From contig OZ240248.1 in assembly GCA_965198235.1 (NCBI GenBank), positions 4,320,001-4,384,000 on the forward strand: 64,000 nucleotides of DNA. Reading direction: 5' to 3'. The position numbers were made by a program, and so were the translations under genes. The DNA is from Candidatus Poribacteria bacterium (GTDB lineage: Bacteria; Poribacteria; WGA-4E; WGA-3G). Below the pieces are notes generated by a model, which was not told the origin of the DNA, searched no databases, and saw only the letters and a program-made list of their open reading frames with translations. Shown here one piece after another: positions 47,494 through 55,226 of this stretch (the stretch's first letter is position 1; every line of letters begins with the position of its first letter).

Positions 47494-47964
47494 TTAACGT
47501 TTCGTTGACTTTGCCAAAGCCTGTGCTAAGTTTCCTTGGTGACCGCATCGCGCAGTATTAATCGGAAATTCTGCACCTCGGAATCTGATTCTGGCAGTTC
47601 TAAGTCGGTTTCTCTGACTTCTGTGTATGCTACCTCCATGGACCAGGACAAGAACAAGGTTCATCTCAACGTCATTTGGAGTGCACCTGTCAACAATACG
47701 CGCTCCGTCTTGCAACTGTGCAACCGCTTCTGATGCATCAACATCGCCTCGCTTAAGTTCCATTGGAACTGCGACGAGACCGTTCTGGACATCGTCAATG
47801 TGGAAAAGGATCAGGTCACATTGATTTGTATCCGCTTGGTCTGTTGGAAATGCAAGATCTACATCCAATACAACGCGATTTGCTGGTTTAGATTGTAGAT
47901 TAGCCATAGAGACGCGACACCCTTCTTTGGTATAGGGGATGTCGCCTTTCTGTTTCCTACCCAC
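47494..47964 (-). CDS. Small PD-(D/E)XK-like protein, partner of the upstream ATPase
   Basis: QCDLILF...VPMELKRG...AVAQL pattern; GTG start after AAGGAG. Confidence 0.55.
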   Translation of the reverse strand: MGRKQKGDIPYTKEGCRVSMANLQSKPANRVVLDVDLAFPTDQADTNQCDLILFHIDDVQNGLVAVPMELKRGDVDASEAVAQLQDGARIVDRCTPNDVEMNLVLVLVHGGSIHRSQRNRLRTARIRFRGAEFPINTARCGHQGNLAQALAKSTKR

Positions 47965-47985: not shown

Positions 47986-49440
47986 TCATGCAGATTCACG
48001 TCCGCTGTTACCTTCCTGTTTCTCTAATTTCTGTTGGAGATTCACCGATCGATTGTAAAGCCCTTCCGCAACCTCCTCATAATCTTCTGGAGAGATGCCT
48101 TCTCCGGGTTTAAAAGGCATTTCCTTCACAGGTTTGTCCTTTTGGAAATGCCAAACACCAACTTCTTCTGGCAGCAGCCAACTCACAGGTTCATTAGTTT
48201 CTTTAGCCAGCAGTCCCTCAAGCGTTAGGTTGCTTATTTCCTGAAGCAGCCAATCACTATGCGTTGTTATAATTACTCTTACCCCTGCCCGAACCAAACG
48301 AGCGAGGATAACTGCCATGTCCGCCTGCGCTCCAGGATGCAGGTGCGCTTCCGGTTCCTCAATGATGAGCGTATCACCGGGCTTAAGGTCACTACGAAGA
48401 AACAACACCAACGGAGCGAGTTCCGATACCATTGAAGAGGCTTGACTCACAAGAATATCTTCCTCCATTCCCTGTGGACGGTAGAGAAACTCTGAGTGCC
48501 CACTTGGAGAAGATTTTGCGATTATGTCACCGGCGAGTACATCAGTCTCTAATGATTTGGCAATTGCAAACAATTTATCATTAGGTGTATCAGGTTCTTC
48601 GTAGAGTATCAGCAGCCGTAGGAAGTCTGCAAGCCCTCCTGATAACGTCGCAATATCTGAGGAATCTTCCATGAATGGGTAACTAATATGTGCTACAGAT
48701 GAACTCGCGATTATTTTGTGATTTTGCATTATGCCGCTTCGAGAAGATGGCAGATAATACCTTCGCAAATGCCTGATAGAGGGACGCGAACCTTCCAAAA
48801 TAGATACGGCATAAGAAACATGTGGTCTGATTAATTCAACGGGATTAACCACCATGTTCTCGTTAACTCGATCATTTATTACGATGCTATCACCAGAACC
48901 TTTCATCTCAACTGCCCAGAGCTCTTGACTTGCTTCACTAACCGATAAAGAAACATCCATTCTATGGTGCCGTCCATTGTCCAACCGAGGTAATTTGGAA
49001 ATCGAATTAAGATTAAAACAGCGTTTAAGTTCTTCCTCAAAAACCTTTAGATTCTTGAGCCCAGATTTTATTTCCTCACGGATGTCCTGAGGAAGTTCTG
49101 ACAACTTGACCTGCTTGTCAATTATTTTTATTTTTTCAACCAATTGATAAAATTTATTTATTTCATCTATTACCTCAATTACATCATCGAAAGAGTCTGA
49201 CTCAAATGTGGCTTTCGGTAAGGATAATATAGCGTGGTTCAACAAAGGATATCGCGGGAACCCCTCAAGGATACCATGCAGCGCATACACCAGCGTGGCA
49301 AAATAGGTTTTTCCCGTGTTGCTCGGACCAACAAATACCGTCAGCGGACGCAAATCAATGTTCGCCTCCGCAATGGGACCGAAATTTTTAACAACAATTT
49401 CGACGTTCGGATGCTGATGCGTTTCTTTGGCTTCGTTCAT
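47986..49440 (-). CDS. ABC-type AAA ATPase (AAA_15/AAA_21, AbiEii/OLD-like)
   Basis: VKNFGPI, GPSNTGKT, ASSMVSE, IIEEPEAHLHP and ITTHSD motifs. Confidence 0.88.
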   Translation of the reverse strand: MNEAKETHQHPNVEIVVKNFGPIAEANIDLRPLTVFVGPSNTGKTYFATLVYALHGILEGFPRYPLLNHAILSLPKATFESDSFDDVIEVIDEINKFYQLVEKIKIIDKQVKLSELPQDIREEIKSGLKNLKVFEEELKRCFNLNSISKLPRLDNGRHHRMDVSLSVSEASQELWAVEMKGSGDSIVINDRVNENMVVNPVELIRPHVSYAVSILEGSRPSIRHLRRYYLPSSRSGIMQNHKIIASSSVAHISYPFMEDSSDIATLSGGLADFLRLLILYEEPDTPNDKLFAIAKSLETDVLAGDIIAKSSPSGHSEFLYRPQGMEEDILVSQASSMVSELAPLVLFLRSDLKPGDTLIIEEPEAHLHPGAQADMAVILARLVRAGVRVIITTHSDWLLQEISNLTLEGLLAKETNEPVSWLLPEEVGVWHFQKDKPVKEMPFKPGEGISPEDYEEVAEGLYNRSVNLQQKLEKQEGNSGRESA

Positions 49441-49671: not shown

Positions 49672-51045
49672 TTAAAAAAACGTCAGATACAGTTTTCCAA
49701 CAATCTCCCGCCATAACAGGACTGCGAGTTCGCGGGCGTGATAATCGCCCCACATCGAAGCCTCTCCACACGGAATCTTCCTGCCTTCCGGCACATAATC
49801 CCACCCATTCGGACGGTGATATATCGAATGCAACAGCAGCCCTTGATGCGTATCGGATTCAGAGAGATAGGGTTCAGCGAAGAGCGTCTTCGCGACTGTT
49901 AAGCCCGCTTGGTAATAGGAATCTCCTGCATCTGGTTCACCGTGTTTTCTGAGATAGTTGCCCAGCCGAATCAATCCTTGCGCCGCAATCGCGGCGGCGG
50001 AACTATCTACCGGTTCAAGATCGTTGAACGGATCCGCGGGGACTGCCAAATAATCGTTGATATATTCGGCTAAACCGGGCGCGCCTGTATCCCAATATGG
50101 GATTCCGTCCTGTGCCGTGTTTTCAATATAGAAATCAGCGGTGGCTTCTGCCGCTTTGCGCATGTGTGCCGTTGCCAGTTCATATCCACCGTAAGGTTCA
50201 AGCATATCTGCTGGTAGCGTGTCAAAAAATTCAAGTTGCTCGGCGTAACCCGTAATAATCCATGCGAGTCCGCGCGTCCACGTCGTAAACGGTGAATACC
50301 CCTGCTGCGTACTCGGACAGCGGTAGTTCCCATCGTTCGTATTGAAGATAGATTCATGTACCACCCGTCCACGCAGGTCGAATGCATCACGACCTTCGCC
50401 ATAGTAGACGTTATAGGTTGCCGTCGTCTGCGAATGCTGGAGCAAGCGTTCCAGTAGACTAACAGCGACATCGCCCTCATCCATAAGCACTGCGCCAAGG
50501 GTATGTCCAAGTCCCAAAACCCGTAGAGAACGAATAGTGTCTGAGAAAAGCGAATGCGGTCCATTGAAAGAGGCGATATATCCCGTGCCATCTTTAATAC
50601 GGGTCCAGCGACTCGCTTGCACGGCAGCGGAGGCTTTCAGTGCGAGTTCATAGAAATCCATCTCGCCATCGTTCAAGGGAATCACACCCTCCCGCATCAA
50701 ACGTCGGAGGTTGCCGTAAGTAGAGACATTATTGAAACCGTGATCATGGACACCAATGTGGGTCACATGGGGTGCCATCTTTTCAATCGTATTCCGTCTA
50801 CCGATCTCAAGGAACTGCTCATCGCCAGTGGCATCAAATTGGAGAATAGCGGAGCCGAATTGGAACCCTTGCGTCCACTCAGTCCAGCCGCGTGTCGTGT
50901 AGGTGCCAGCGACCGTAAAAACAGGTGTCCCTTTTTCGGGGGGCCATGTGTCTTCTATTGCTAAAATTTTTTGACCTGAACATTCAAAAAGCCTCTGAAT
51001 CTGAGGCTTCAGATCGGCGGGATGCAATGAATCGTTTATCTGCAT
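49672..51045 (-). CDS. Glycoside hydrolase family 88 (unsaturated glucuronyl hydrolase-like)
   Basis: WTQGF, HDHGF, TWTRGLAW, PYWD, DSSAAAI and WGDY motifs. Confidence 0.85.
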   Translation of the reverse strand: MQINDSLHPADLKPQIQRLFECSGQKILAIEDTWPPEKGTPVFTVAGTYTTRGWTEWTQGFQFGSAILQFDATGDEQFLEIGRRNTIEKMAPHVTHIGVHDHGFNNVSTYGNLRRLMREGVIPLNDGEMDFYELALKASAAVQASRWTRIKDGTGYIASFNGPHSLFSDTIRSLRVLGLGHTLGAVLMDEGDVAVSLLERLLQHSQTTATYNVYYGEGRDAFDLRGRVVHESIFNTNDGNYRCPSTQQGYSPFTTWTRGLAWIITGYAEQLEFFDTLPADMLEPYGGYELATAHMRKAAEATADFYIENTAQDGIPYWDTGAPGLAEYINDYLAVPADPFNDLEPVDSSAAAIAAQGLIRLGNYLRKHGEPDAGDSYYQAGLTVAKTLFAEPYLSESDTHQGLLLHSIYHRPNGWDYVPEGRKIPCGEASMWGDYHARELAVLLWREIVGKLYLTFF

Positions 51046-51226
51046 TTTTTAAATTTTCCTTGCGGTTCGGTGAGGTGCATTGGATGAACAACGATCCCCT
51101 CCGTAGATCCGCCTGCGCCGTTGTTGCAGGCTACAGTTTTGGTTTAACATTCCATTCTTAACCAGAAACCCGCATTCTCACTGCGAAGCAAATGGACACA
51201 GCGGGCCAGAAGCAATAAGTTAAAAA
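51046..51226 (+). mobile_element. Full-length family A MITE/REPIN-like element
   Basis: TTTTTAAATTTTCCTTGCGGTTCGGTGAGG ... TTAACCAGAAACC ... AGTTAAAAA; the ends are inverted TTTTTAA/TTAAAAA. Confidence 0.75.
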
Positions 51227-51745: not shown

Positions 51746-51890
51746 TTTTCTATTTCTAAACTTTAGTTTAGTATAGTTTAGCACGCATTAGACCGTTTGG
51801 CAAGTTTTTCCTTTATTGCCCAATTCATGATTCTGTGCTACAATGAAGTGGAAATTGTAGTAAAAAATTATGCCGATCAGGAGAAAAGAG

Positions 51891-53057
51891 ATGACACAGC
51901 AAAAAGAACACACGCATCGCAGGTTACCTATTTGCACGCTCGGCGCACCCGGACACGGCAAAACAACATTGACGGCGGCGATAGCAAAGGTCGTCGCGAG
52001 AATCGGTGCGATCCACACGAACGGAGATAGCGACTTTGAAATCCAAACCCCAATCAGCCACCCAATCCGAGAAGGGGTCGGCATCACCTACCGTGCAATA
52101 GCGTATGAAACCAGCGGTAAACTTTACAGACAAATCGATTGCGAGACACACATCGATGCTGTCAAAATGCTCGTCAGTGGGTCTCCAGCAATCCAAGGGG
52201 CAATTTGGATAGTAAATGCAGTCGAAGGGATAACACCCGACTCCGAGGCACATCTCCGCCTTGCCAGCCAGATGCAATTCCCGACAGTGTTATCCTTTCT
52301 TAACACAGGTGGTACTCCAAAGGACGATGAACTCATAGACATTTGCCAACAGGAAATGGAAGAACTGCTGAACGAGTGTGGATGGGATGAAGAAACCGCT
52401 CCAATAATCGTTGGCGACGTGCGCAAGGCATTAGACTACAGGGGAGACAGTATCACCTCCACACAGTGGCAACCGATCGTTGACCTTATCTTCGCAATGA
52501 ATCGGGCAATGCCTGCCCCCGTGGACACGGCACGCTTACCGCTTATTATGCCTATTCATGAAATCACTGAGGAAACGAAGGAGAGTGTATCCGTCCGCGG
52601 CGATATTGTGCAGGGACAACTCGCTGTCGGACAAGCCGTAGATATCGTGGGCAAAGGGGACAGAATTAAGACGCGGGTTCTCAGTATAAAGGAGGATGAA
52701 GTGTGCGTCGAATCTGAACCCGACTGGTTGTCTCTTGGACAGGTACTTTGTACACCGAAGACAGTCAAATCACATTCCGAATTTACGGCACTCATCTATC
52801 TGCTGACACACGAAGAGAGCGGCACACATATCCCCCTGATCGAAAACGACAGACCTGACATCTATCTATGGGGGACTGACATACCAGCGCATCTAAAACT
52901 CCCGCCAAGTCTCTCCCTTATTACACCGGGGGCTTATGCCCACGTCTCCGTTACACTCGACTTACCGCTGGTGATGGAGATCGGCACCCGATTTGAAGTA
53001 AAAAAGATGGATGTGCGAATCGGGTTCGGTGTTGTGACTGGCGTAGGTGATCTCTGA
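51891..53057 (+). CDS. Highly divergent three-domain EF-Tu paralogue
   Basis: GHGKTTLTAAI, YET...IDCETHIDAVK, GQVLCTP...YLLTHEESGTH.P, and RF...IGFGVV are colinear with EF-Tu. Start ATG 51891 after AGGAG. Confidence 0.88.
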   Translation: MTQQKEHTHRRLPICTLGAPGHGKTTLTAAIAKVVARIGAIHTNGDSDFEIQTPISHPIREGVGITYRAIAYETSGKLYRQIDCETHIDAVKMLVSGSPAIQGAIWIVNAVEGITPDSEAHLRLASQMQFPTVLSFLNTGGTPKDDELIDICQQEMEELLNECGWDEETAPIIVGDVRKALDYRGDSITSTQWQPIVDLIFAMNRAMPAPVDTARLPLIMPIHEITEETKESVSVRGDIVQGQLAVGQAVDIVGKGDRIKTRVLSIKEDEVCVESEPDWLSLGQVLCTPKTVKSHSEFTALIYLLTHEESGTHIPLIENDRPDIYLWGTDIPAHLKLPPSLSLITPGAYAHVSVTLDLPLVMEIGTRFEVKKMDVRIGFGVVTGVGDL

Positions 53058-53059
53058 TC

Positions 53060-53189
53060 CAAAACCTGAGCCCGTAAGCGTAGCGGAGGGGTGTTTTTGC
53101 TTGGGTATTTCTTCGGATTTCTTCAGATATACGTCAAAGAACGTTATTCACCCGTTGACTTCACCGAACCGCAAGGTATAATTAAAAAA
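53060..53189 (-). repeat. Family A repeat (left half), supplies the hisA stop codon
   Basis: Reverse complement TTTTTTAATTATACCTTGCGGTTCGGTGAAG...CCCTCCGCTACGCTTACGGGCT. Confidence 0.8.
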
Positions 53190-53895
53190 TATGTGCGGTA
53201 GCAATTGCGTCACGCAGCGCGAGGTCACCGGTATACAAAGCACGCCCTATTATCGCGCCGCTGGCACCGATCTGCTTCAAAGCGGCTACGTCAGCAAGCG
53301 ACGTGACCCCACCCGAAGCAATCACATCCGCAGATACGGCATCAACAACATCGGCAGTTGCGTCAACATTGGGACCCTTGAGCATGCCATCGCTTTTGAT
53401 GTCAGTGTAGATAAGCGTTTGGACCTCCGATATCTCCACGGCAAATTCGACAGCAGATTTTTGAGAGACCTCTAACCATCCGTCCGTGGCGACCCTTCCA
53501 TCTTTCGCGTCGATGCCGACAGCGACGCGCACACCGTGTTCGGCACACGCCTGCTTCACCAAACTCGGTTGTTTGAGCGCAACCGTGCCTAAAATGGCGC
53601 GATCCACACCTAACGCCAAAACCGCTTCTAATTGCTCCATGCTGCGGATGCCACCGCCAAGCTGGACAGGAATATCAAGCTCACATACGATTTCGCTAAC
53701 GATATGGAGGTTCGCCGATTCACCCTGAAACGCGCCGTCCAGATCCACGAGGTGCAAGTATTCTGCTCCCTCGGCTTGCCACCGCAATGCCATTTCCACA
53801 GGCGCGTCCGAGAAAATTGTCTCCTGCGACGCGATACCCTGCACTAAATTTACACACTTTCCACCGCGAAGATCAATTGCGGGTAGTATTTGCAT
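53182..53895 (-). CDS. hisA: ProFAR isomerase HisA
   Basis: ILPAIDL, LHLVDLDGA, QLGGGIR, TDIKSDGMLKG, IASGGV and IIGRALY motifs. Confidence 0.96.
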   Translation of the reverse strand: MQILPAIDLRGGKCVNLVQGIASQETIFSDAPVEMALRWQAEGAEYLHLVDLDGAFQGESANLHIVSEIVCELDIPVQLGGGIRSMEQLEAVLALGVDRAILGTVALKQPSLVKQACAEHGVRVAVGIDAKDGRVATDGWLEVSQKSAVEFAVEISEVQTLIYTDIKSDGMLKGPNVDATADVVDAVSADVIASGGVTSLADVAALKQIGASGAIIGRALYTGDLALRDAIATAHIF

Positions 53896-54267
53896 TTTTA
53901 ATTTTCCTTGCGGTATTTTAATTTTACCTTGCGGTTCGGTGAGGTGGGTTGGGGTACTGAAAGTTCCTCTCCGTATACCCGCTCTCCATTACATTACGAG
54001 CTACGTGCCTTGTTTATTGTTTTCACTAAAACCCTCAAACTCAGTTGCACATTTAATTTTCCTTGCGGTATTTTAATTTTACCTTGCGGTTCGGTGAGGT
54101 GGGTTGGAGTACTGAAAGTTCCTCTCTGTATACCCGATCTCCATTACATTACGAGCTACGCGCCTTAGTTTATTTCTTCCACCAAAACCCTCAAACATAG
54201 TTGAGACTTAATCAGAAACCTGCGCGTAATGGAATGGAGCGCAGCCAAGGCGTACATAGTTAAAAAA
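53896..54267 (+). mobile_element. Tandem family A elements (truncated copy plus full copy)
   Basis: ~156-bp near-identical direct duplication (53896-54051 and 54052 onward). Each copy has a doubled TTAATTTTWCCTTGCGGT end; the second ends CATAGTTAAAAAA. Confidence 0.85.
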
Positions 54268-54275
54268 CCTTTCCG

Positions 54276-55226
54276 CTATTCATCTCGGAAAATACCGAGC
54301 AACTTCAATTGGACGATTGAGATAACCGCAATAATGAAAAATAGCACCCAGCCGATTGTCGCCGCATAGCCGAGCCGCATGAATTGAAATCCGTTTTTGT
54401 AGAGATACATGACGATAGTCGACCCCGCATCCGCAGGTTCACCGCCGTTTGTTAAAATGAATGGAAGGTCAAAGAGTTGGAGCGAGCCTATCATCGAGAC
54501 AACGAAAACGAAGGCTATCACGGGGCGCAAGGAAGGGAGCGTGACATGGATGAACGCCTGCCACCAGTTCGCGCCATCGACCGCTGCCGCTTCATACAAC
54601 TCCTGCCGAATCCCTTGCAACCCAGCCAAAAAATAGATCATATTGAACCCTGCCCACTGCCAAACCCCTGTTAGGATGACCGCTGGCATCACATATTTCT
54701 CCTCGTTTAACCAACCGATCTCTTTGCCAAAAAGAACAAATTCCTGATTTATCAAGCCTGCCCGCTGGTCGTAGACGAGGTTAAAGATAATCGCGACGAA
54801 GACACCGGCGACGAGGACTGGTGCGAAAAAGGCGAGACGCAGGAAATTCTTCCCTTTGACGAATTTGGAATTGAGGAGAATCGCCAATAGCAAGGCAATC
54901 GGCAATTGGAGGGTGAGGGTGCCCGCGGCGAAATAGGCAGTGTTCCGTAGCGATTTCCAAAAAATTGGGTCACGAAACAGATCCGTGAAGTTACCGATGC
55001 CAACAAATATTCGGCTCTGGAACCCACGCATTTCATACAAACTCATAACGAGCGACGAAATGAGCGGATACCCCATAAAAATGACGAACAGCAGATAAAA
55101 CGGAGCGATAAAAAGATAGGGAGCGATTTTCTGTTGTTGATTCCAAAACCGGTTTTTAATTATTCCTTGCGGTTCGGTGAGGTTGGTTGGGGTTTTCACG
55201 TGTACCTCCGTAGAGTCAAGAAACAC
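54276..55226 (-). CDS. Carbohydrate ABC transporter permease
   Basis: YLFIAPF, GIGNF, ELYEAAAVDGAN (EAA loop) and GYAATIG. The start (GTG 55226 or GTG 55199) lies inside a family A repeat. Confidence 0.92.
   Translation of the reverse strand: MFLDSTEVHVKTPTNLTEPQGIIKNRFWNQQQKIAPYLFIAPFYLLFVIFMGYPLISSLVMSLYEMRGFQSRIFVGIGNFTDLFRDPIFWKSLRNTAYFAAGTLTLQLPIALLLAILLNSKFVKGKNFLRLAFFAPVLVAGVFVAIIFNLVYDQRAGLINQEFVLFGKEIGWLNEEKYVMPAVILTGVWQWAGFNMIYFLAGLQGIRQELYEAAAVDGANWWQAFIHVTLPSLRPVIAFVFVVSMIGSLQLFDLPFILTNGGEPADAGSTIVMYLYKNGFQFMRLGYAATIGWVLFFIIAVISIVQLKLLGIFRDE

Follow-up and report, generated by a model that had tools for sequence, protein, structure and literature searches.

What does an EF-Tu-like protein do once the parts for carrying aminoacyl-tRNA and for switching on GTP have been replaced? 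The question is raised by a gene in a 64,000-nucleotide stretch of a Candidatus Poribacteria genome (assembly GCA_965198235.1, contig OZ240248.1, positions 4,320,001 to 4,384,000 of the forward strand; hereafter the window), which encodes a paralogue of EF-Tu that we call P0001. Few proteins are as conserved or as well studied as EF-Tu, whose bacterial paralogues are usually kept near-identical by gene conversion. The family to which P0001 belongs is homologous to EF-Tu, retains its three-domain architecture, is conserved and evolves under purifying selection; its GTPase motifs have decayed lineage by lineage and constraint has shifted to domain II. Since the parts for aminoacyl-tRNA carriage and for the GTP switch have been lost, the paralogue probably does a different job, and we infer from its sequence that aminoacyl-tRNA delivery and GTPase switching would both be gone, leaving a putative binding or adaptor role. 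On balance, we favour the view that the gene encodes an EF-Tu-derived pseudo-GTPase outside elongation, a binding module that works without a nucleotide switch.

A three-domain EF-Tu paralogue with replaced motifs

The coding sequence and the features within it are as follows.

51891..53057, + strand: coding sequence of the EF-Tu paralogue, 388 residues plus stop (open frame; EF-Tu models align with residues 5-385)
51891..52505, + strand: G domain, residues 1-205 (Pfam GTP_EFTU, 66.2 bits over residues 12-175; secondary structure of the model)
51942..51965, + strand: G1/P-loop GAPGHGKT, residues 18-25, canonical GHVDHGKT (alignment; canonical His-Val-Asp lost)
52077..52091, + strand: switch I remnant VGITY, residues 63-67, canonical RGITI (alignment)
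52137..52151, + strand: G3 DCETH, residues 83-87, canonical DCPGH (alignment; DxxG glycine replaced)
52302..52313, + strand: G4 NTGG, residues 138-141, canonical NKAD (alignment; guanine-specificity Lys and Asp lost)
52413..52424, + strand: G5 GDVR, residues 175-178, canonical GSAL (alignment; Ser replaced)
52506..52760, + strand: domain II, residues 206-290, a remodelled beta-barrel (no Pfam GTP_EFTU_D2; strands predicted at a predicted local distance difference test score, pLDDT, >90)
52611..52685, + strand: family-specific conserved block QGQLAVGQAVDIVGKGDRIKTRVLS, residues 241-265 (top-scoring 15-residue windows)
52713..52718, + strand: junction Ser275/Glu276 of a 14-residue deletion relative to canonical EF-Tu (alignment; gap in 40/40 orthologues)
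52761..53054, + strand: domain III, residues 291-388 (Pfam GTP_EFTU_D3, 50 bits, residues 291-385)

Aligned end to end with the genome's own EF-Tu, the paralogue is of similar length and 33% identical (31-36%), and the closest solved structures by sequence are all EF-Tu (best 201 bits). It passes the Pfam cut-offs for GTP_EFTU (66.2 bits against 26.5) and GTP_EFTU_D3 (50 bits against 27), which places it in the EF1 branch of the translational GTPase superfamily, and it has no match to Pfam GTP_EFTU_D2. The NCBIfam EF-Tu models align with residues 5-385 at 210-218 bits, below their cut-offs of 449-522; the equivalog model TIGR00485 gives 210.1 bits (204.3 in a six-frame search of the genome) against a cut-off of 522.4. 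The intact G1-G5 motifs of an EF-Tu are replaced by GAPGHGKT, VGITY, DCETH, NTGG and DVR. The G3 glycine serves the switch, and the Lys and Asp of G4 give guanine specificity. In domain II, the canonical loop ISGRGTVV (within GRGTVVTG) has become ETKESVSV, and a 14-column gap stands opposite the canonical stretch ending in ...NEGQAGDNLGALLRGV. These segments line the aminoacyl/CCA pocket of EF-Tu, and both the deletion and the loop replacement are found in 40 of 40 orthologues.

A sequence-only reading of this DNA had described a full-length EF-Tu paralogue with altered motifs. Indeed, every change that it listed is found in the alignment to the genome's canonical EF-Tu, including the replaced loop and missing pocket segment of domain II. 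It also called G1 degenerate, and here the sequence is as it stated, but GAPGHGKT still fits the Walker A pattern GxxxxGK[ST], so this motif is altered rather than destroyed.

An additional gene beside canonical tuf

The genome of the window, G000, holds a canonical tuf after fusA (G000:C1:4159920-4161116; 724.3 bits to TIGR00485), 212 kb from the paralogue, as a check suggested earlier had anticipated. Since there is one canonical tuf in this genome and in 118 of 121 genomes sampled from the phylum, the paralogue is additional and not a replacement. Two more genes of the EF-Tu superfamily lie 3 kb apart on the reverse strand (G000:C1:3674110-3675180 and 3677157-3677942), in open frames of 671 and 606 amino acids; from their length and the model ranges matched, they may be SelB and BipA/TypA.

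The translational GTPase phylogeny that had been proposed as a further check sets the paralogues apart. In a 96-row tree they form one clade with the metagenomic protein P0123 (Shimodaira-Hasegawa-like approximate likelihood ratio test, SH-aLRT, 99; 99-100 across trees); the branching inside this clade follows the genome families, and the clade is not nested within that of Poribacteria tuf. Joining the paralogues with Poribacteria tuf costs 18.8 log-likelihood units, with a p-value of 0.10 in the approximately unbiased (AU) test (39 of the 96 rows, LG+G4), so that duplication within the lineage, which may be the origin of the paralogue, is neither rejected nor shown by this 39-row subset. P0123 comes from a 2122-bp JGI metagenome contig and branches as sister to the Poribacteria family (SH-aLRT 99). 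It keeps GHLGHGKT, NKID and GSAR and has an insert in place of the 14-residue deletion, and may be a less derived relative of the family.

A vertically inherited family under purifying selection

To follow the paralogue across its phylum we used a sample of 121 genomes; the order concerned comprises families f1-f4 (116 genomes searched) and its neighbours families f5-f8 (8 genomes). With a paralogue-level match taken as a best E value <=1e-83 in the single-protein search, matches were found in 80/81 genomes of f1, 9/9 of f2, 19/19 of f3 and 2/3 of f4, and a profile search added strongly diverged copies from G081 (f4), G121, G122 and G123. In total, 114 of the 116 genomes of this one Candidatus Poribacteria order carry the paralogue, in all four families; it was missing from G092 (86% complete) and G124 (85% complete). 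The single-protein and profile searches did not find it in the 8 genomes of f5-f8, six of which yielded canonical tuf alone and two no match at all.

A word-indexed search of 5.8 billion proteins returned 2314 matches at E <=1e-10, of which the best 120 are all at least 80% identical to P0001 and 356-488 amino acids long. Among these best 120, those named by NCBI are from 'Candidatus Poribacteria bacterium' and are labelled hypothetical or GTP-binding protein, and two JGI rows are labelled elongation factor Tu. When 1.84 billion representatives (50% identity) were scanned exhaustively with HMMER, only two clusters besides that of the window scored above the EF-Tu background, namely P0122 (431 bits, 50% identity) and P0123 (267 bits, 39%), the next score being 176 bits.

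All 40 of the fetched loci have intact full-length open reading frames (ORFs). One copy, in G093 (G093:C4:1037327-1038484), carries one in-frame TAG. The copy in G109 (G109:C1:3240959-3242194) is reported as two pieces, with an insertion near residue 170; because both pieces share one 440-residue open frame, this is an insertion and not a break. The paralogue is a vertically inherited family in one Poribacteria order.

It is also under purifying selection. By the Nei-Gojobori method, applied to pairs within the window's genus, the median ratio of non-synonymous to synonymous substitution (dN/dS) is 0.093 (range 0.058-0.149; 189 of 190 pairs usable). Over the same 19 genomes the ratio is 0.092 for the paralogue against 0.043 for tuf, and dN of the paralogue is 2.6-fold higher. 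Copies in the two genera that have lost the P-loop, g12 and g20, give 0.13-0.17 (three pairs with unsaturated dS). A tuf duplicate on its way to becoming a pseudogene could account for the degenerate GTPase motifs and for the in-frame TAG of G093, and it was for such a decaying copy that the earlier reading had asked for dN/dS and intactness to be checked. We regard this explanation as scarcely credible: the 40 fetched loci are all intact, dN/dS is 0.09 and no higher than 0.13-0.17 in the genera with the most degenerate copies, all four families have kept the gene, its AlphaFold2 model is confident, and its sequence occurs in RNA-library contigs. The decaying copy was rejected on the intact ORFs, low dN/dS and order-wide retention.

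Lineage-by-lineage decay of the GTPase centre

To see how the GTPase centre varies within the family, we compared 25 diverse members at the 25 columns of the G motifs and at the other 361 columns. Mean pairwise identity is 0.42 in the G-motif columns, the same columns that are invariant in canonical EF-Tu, against 0.51 elsewhere; among the five G-motif blocks, switch I varies most (0.26). The glycine of DxxG is gone from 24 of the 25 members. The position of the catalytic His mostly holds His, and also Tyr, Gln, Pro, Ser or Phe. G4 is canonical in one member only and differs from family to family, in a series from NKAD to DQPx: NKAD or NEVD in g10 of f4, NKAE, NKSE or NKTG in f3, NQTE or NQSE in f2, NTGG, NTRN, NIHN or NVHN in f1, and DQPx or DQSE in g12 and g20. 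The P-loop pattern GxxxxGK[ST] is kept in 21/25 members and deleted in 4/25, the loss being a 3-residue deletion (GEKSN---DLC, GDRSY---DLC) in g12 and g20, whose genes nevertheless remain intact ORFs of 386-401 amino acids. In domain II, the 14-column deletion is shared by all 40 orthologues; some members of f3 have an unrelated insert of about 20 residues near it, and g12 and g20 a shorter one. What is expected of a pseudoGTPase, namely one or more G motifs lost and free of family-wide constraint, is therefore seen in the G3 glycine, in G4, in the P-loop of four members and in the lower identity of the motif columns.

The main alternative is that the protein is a nucleotide-binding regulator of altered specificity, because the Walker A motif and the G3 Asp are kept above the protein average. 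Under this explanation, lineages with a P-loop would bind nucleotide without guanine specificity, possibly ATP or any nucleoside tri- or diphosphate, the bound nucleotide or its slow hydrolysis would be needed, and the P-loop loss in g12 and g20 would be secondary. In the P-loop, the G, K and T columns reach an identity of 0.63-0.70 against the protein mean of 0.51, the P-loop and the G3 Asp persist in 21 members, and the basal f4 member L047 retains NKAD. However, such a regulator is hard to square with a DxxG glycine absent from all but one member, with a switch I that is the most variable block, with a G4 that varies in nearly every family, and with purifying selection on g12 and g20 genes that have no P-loop. 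We consider this alternative a real one, if rather unlikely; the altered-nucleotide enzyme that the sequence-only reading had also entertained may apply to the P-loop-keeping lineages.

Constraint has moved to domain II

The ranking of the domains by conservation is reversed between the two proteins. In canonical EF-Tu the G domain is the most conserved (identity 0.87), followed by domains III (0.85) and II (0.79), whereas in the paralogue domain II comes first (0.54), followed by domains III (0.52) and G (0.49). The most conserved stretch of the family is the block QGQLAVGQAVDIVGKGDRIKTRVLS at residues 241-265, where 15-residue windows reach a mean pairwise identity of 0.71-0.76. There are 92 columns that are conserved in canonical EF-Tu yet variable in the paralogue, covering the N-terminus, switch I, the PG of G3, TREH of helix C, the K and D of G4, and GRGTVVTG of domain II; where both proteins are conserved, the residue is the same in 61 columns and different in another 25. 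Family-specific blocks that persist even in the P-loop-less genera are YETSGK, helix D (D.EL..C..E), WQPI, AEPGW, H.P[LI], LW and FE..KM.

Some of the retained residues could suit a specialised carrier that serves a process alongside translation and takes an RNA or tRNA other than the standard one, such as a tRNA that is uncharged or bears an unusual acyl group. The paralogue keeps domain III and Lys92, whose canonical counterpart contacts the 5' end of the tRNA, and the conserved blocks GKGDRIKTR and KKM contain family-specific basic residues. A precedent is aSelBL/MM1309, an EF-Tu-family paralogue that binds Cys-tRNA according to the available part of its description (PMC4329189). Against such a carrier, all 40 orthologues have lost the segment of the aminoacyl/CCA pocket, and they lack a GTP switch by which release could be driven. 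With an isoelectric point of 5.0 and a net charge of -20 the protein is acidic overall, with no basic domain when charge and isoelectric point are computed by domain, and no RNA gene or tRNA-related neighbour recurs at the loci examined. Such a carrier thus appears quite improbable.

Predicted structure, expression and genomic context

AlphaFold2, run on a 28-row family alignment, gave a model with a mean pLDDT of 90.1 and a predicted template modelling score (pTM) of 0.86, in which domain II is a beta-barrel and switch I a beta-hairpin. The best Foldseek matches in the PDB are EF-Tu entries, with a template modelling (TM) score of 0.88 and a root-mean-square deviation of 2.3-3.2 Å, so that the retained GTPase fold of a pseudoGTPase is found here too. 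The nucleotide named in the titles of the matched entries is mostly GDP (6mij, 1d8t, 7vok, 1d2e, 1tui, 8rdw) and GTP in one (5opd); the model therefore takes the open arrangement. A complex prediction of the paralogue with the genome's EF-Ts scored 0.20 and 0.01 against a mark of 0.32, in a run without controls.

The gene lies outside the str operon and any other ribosomal operon, and it has signals of its own:

51879..51883, + strand: Shine-Dalgarno sequence AGGAG, 7 nt before the ATG (read from the sequence)
51816..51844, + strand: sigma-70-like promoter match TTGCCC-17-TACAAT with TG before the -10 hexamer (consensus scan, 9/12 positions; a pattern match only)
53084..53115, + strand: weak terminator-like stem and T-run after the stop (one found against 1.3 expected by chance, not significant)

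An alternative ATG upstream, at 51870, would allow a longer reading frame; it is not a conserved start, because 40/40 orthologues align from the Met at 51891. The intact ORF with its own ribosome-binding site, three domains and a location away from ribosomal operons, all pointed out earlier, are borne out by the open frame, the AGGAG, the domain models and the neighbouring genes. In RNA libraries, four sponge metatranscriptome runs of one study contain 0.30-0.67 of the sampled words, with contigs that span most of the ORF; in run X1, a 704-nt contig corresponds to 51880-52583 with no differences and a second contig to 52655-53099. In runs X5-X14 the fraction of sampled words found is only 0.05-0.07. 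In a preprint on the sponge holobiont proteome, EF-Tu is mentioned in general terms only.

Both flanking genes are on the opposite strand, a cytidylyltransferase-like gene (divergent) and hisA (convergent), and both are conserved neighbours in most of f1. In f2 the neighbour is accA. In f3 there are an M20 peptidase, an isochorismatase-like gene and an uncharacterised downstream gene (g9), and hisD (g7); in f4, NamZ and DUF3500 (g10), and an enolase-superfamily gene upstream with a HAD hydrolase downstream (g12 and g20). As the neighbourhood differs between families, context gives no functional lead. A search of proteins of 680-2000 amino acids for fusions found no fused family member, its two matches being generic EF-Tu at 28-29% identity, which is weak evidence that the family stands alone and unfused. 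For a partner of the Balon/Host_attach type, there was no PF10116 match in this genome, other eRF1-like families not having been searched.

These results bear on a further explanation, that the paralogue is a decoy or guard against toxins, proteases or phage proteins that target EF-Tu, a role that the sequence-only reading had suggested with Doc and Lit in mind. In the available part of one account, EF-Tu is a phage-defence hub: in its open form it serves Avs7 as a structural component, and it is cleaved by Lit and by type IV Thoeris (PMC13581612). Metagenomic EF-Tu-like domains are also found fused to TIR and PD-T4-6-type kinase domains, and an AriA/PD-T4-4_A-like ATPase is encoded 2.5 kb upstream in the window. 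However, none of P0001, P0122 and P0123 matched a family of PADLOC-DB 2.0; the ATPase recurs in 1 of 20 other loci examined (L029, 45% identity); and proteins of 680-2000 amino acids yielded no fused form of the family. Switch I and the C-terminal GGxT loop, which we take to be the sites of Lit and Doc respectively, are not conserved across the family. Defence genes are typically patchy and fast-evolving, whereas this gene is present in 114/116 genomes of the order, tracks the genome tree and has a dN/dS of 0.09, and such a universal, vertical and slowly evolving distribution argues against a decoy, which we therefore hold to be very improbable. What stood of the earlier proposal is its general part, a pseudo-GTPase with a role outside elongation, with which the 40 intact loci, the dN/dS of 0.09, the less conserved motif columns and the P-loop-less genera all agree; the decoy role is unsupported, given the missing PADLOC match, the order-wide vertical inheritance and the unconserved target sites, and so is the regulator of EF-Ts or the ribosome that the same reading had offered.

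Proposed history and its weighing

In the history that we propose for an EF-Tu-derived pseudo-GTPase, tuf would probably have been duplicated at or before the base of one Poribacteria order. The aminoacyl-tRNA pocket would have been lost early, through the deletion and loop replacement in domain II, and so would the flexible DxxG switch, the deletion and the loss of the G3 glycine being near-universal in the family. The paralogue would then have been kept for a function without a GTP/GDP switch. Its G domain would remain mainly a structural module around a vestigial nucleotide pocket that erodes at lineage-specific rates, a pocket that still appears phosphate-binding in most lineages but has disappeared in two genera. 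A partner would probably be bound by the conserved and remodelled face of domains II and III, the same face that binds the acceptor end of tRNA in EF-Tu.

Several observations weigh against this view. Both GxxxxGK[ST] and the G3 Asp are retained in 21/25 diverse members, which may mean that binding a nucleotide is still of importance to most lineages. Helix D of EF-Tu contacts EF-Ts and L7/L12; in the paralogue its residues D145, E147, L148 and E155 are invariant and the same as in canonical EF-Tu, which could reflect a retained contact with EF-Ts or L7/L12. The open conformation comes from one model, and canonical EF-Tu in the same pipeline, with a 7-row alignment, reached a pLDDT of only 48.7. 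The RNA-library contigs come from a single study and report presence only, neither strand nor level, and DNA carry-over is possible. Finally, no neighbouring gene is conserved across the f1-f4 loci examined, and no partner or activity was identified.

Other features of the window

Outside the paralogue, the window contains a dispersed repeat and a group of genes upstream:

53155-53182, + strand: dispersed intergenic repeat with core TCACCGAACCGCAAGG
51057-51075, 53926-53944, 54081-54099 and 55164-55182, - strand: copies of the repeat core
47986-49440, - strand: 484-residue AAA_15/AAA_21 ATPase (PADLOC PD-T4-4_A, 118 bits; PDC-M47A, NsnB, AriA)
47494-47964, - strand: 156-residue ORF following the ATPase (no family match)
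49672-51045, - strand: 457-residue protein (no Pfam or PADLOC match)

The repeat TCACCGAACCGCAAGG has five copies in the window, where none is expected by chance; the whole genome has 27 exact matches to it and 0 to its reversed control. Its forward-strand copy forms a sigma-70 match at 11/12 positions (TTGACT-16-TATAAT) that ends 9 nt before an ATG, antisense into hisA. RNA-library contigs accumulate at 53019-53196; their flanks are of many kinds, and a 40-nt portion in the middle is variable. The repeat may be a promoter/5'-leader cassette or a small mobile repeat; copies read on the opposite strand yield spurious 'LRFGEVGW' ORF fragments. The ATPase and the 156-residue ORF are a candidate two-gene defence module. 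The 457-residue protein, whose gene has a repeat copy directly upstream, is 81-93% identical in 4 of 7 other f1 loci examined (L029, L030, L034 and L035).

Comparison with known systems

In a full-text literature search, judged by titles and abstracts, no bacterial EF-Tu-derived pseudo-GTPase and no Poribacteria EF-Tu paralogue was described. The stepwise decay of a GTPase centre across an order would offer a natural series from switch GTPase to pseudoenzyme, and would indicate an extra EF-Tu-like function in an uncultivated, ecologically important phylum of sponge symbionts. In practice, the genes of the family go by 'elongation factor Tu', 'GTP-binding protein' or 'hypothetical protein' in annotations; counts of tuf and sets of EF-Tu markers should leave them out.

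Other lineages have many unfused proteins of about 395 amino acids (P0138, P0137, P0146, P0129 and others) with an altered G1 or without NKxD, such as the Myxococcus 'GTP-binding protein' P0138, which has GHQGHGKT and no NKxD. Divergent EF-Tu paralogues may have appeared more than once among bacteria. Four metagenomic proteins carry a full EF-Tu-like module (G, D2 and D3) in fusion, with an N-terminal TIR domain in P0140, a PD-T4-6-type Ser/Thr kinase in P0125, zinc ribbons and Sel1 repeats in P0172, and LRR/DUF285 in P0149. At 28-34% identity these four are not close relatives of the Poribacteria family, and they look like immune or conflict proteins with an EF-Tu-like sensor or decoy.

The only such EF-Tu-like subfamily of bacteria named in the available part of Atkinson 2015 is actEF-Tu, or EF-Tu3, of Actinomycetales, described there as a condition-specific translation factor (PMC4342817). 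Like the Poribacteria family, it is, as far as that part goes, a distinct EF-Tu-like subfamily beside canonical tuf; the Poribacteria family differs in having lost the motifs and pocket for a translation-factor role, and it does not lie near the Nocardiopsis protein P0139 in the tree. Among archaea, aSelBL/MM1309 is likewise a paralogue in the EF-Tu/SelB family with a strongly divergent G domain, to go by the available portions of its sources (PMC3037878, PMC4329189, PMC4342817). MM1309, however, binds GTP analogues as well as Cys-tRNA (PMC4329189, in the part available), whereas the Poribacteria proteins are without the pocket segment and some are without the P-loop. PseudoGTPases such as the p190RhoGAP domains, AAGAB and degenerate septins are described, in the available parts of the sources, as keeping the fold for protein-protein interaction after loss of G motifs (PMC12490416, PMC5593906, PMC10731463); as described there, they derive neither from a translational GTPase nor from bacterial EF-Tu.

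Set beside canonical EF-Tu itself, the paralogue shares the three-domain fold and length, with a structural match at TM 0.88; it differs in its 210 bits against a cut-off of 522, the missing D2 match, the replaced motifs, 14 fewer residues, a place outside the str operon and 2.6-fold faster evolution at non-synonymous sites. A functional parallel may lie with the eukaryotic EF1A-family adaptors of the Ski7/Hbs1 type, paralogues of the aminoacyl-tRNA carrier that have given up this cargo and act as binding adaptors, Ski7 having a degenerate GTPase centre. By this analogy we suggest, tentatively and as a rather unlikely proposal, that the family is a bacterial counterpart of Ski7/Hbs1, a nucleotide-independent adaptor in which the domain II block at residues 241-265 and domain III would dock a protein or RNA partner, possibly still at the factor site of the ribosome, or on EF-Ts through the conserved helix D. 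If true, bacteria would here have their first described family of EF-Tu-derived pseudo-GTPases, one whose genera preserve successive stages in the decay of the GTPase centre. The likeness to Ski7/Hbs1 is by analogy, those adaptors belonging to another domain of life and having an independent origin.

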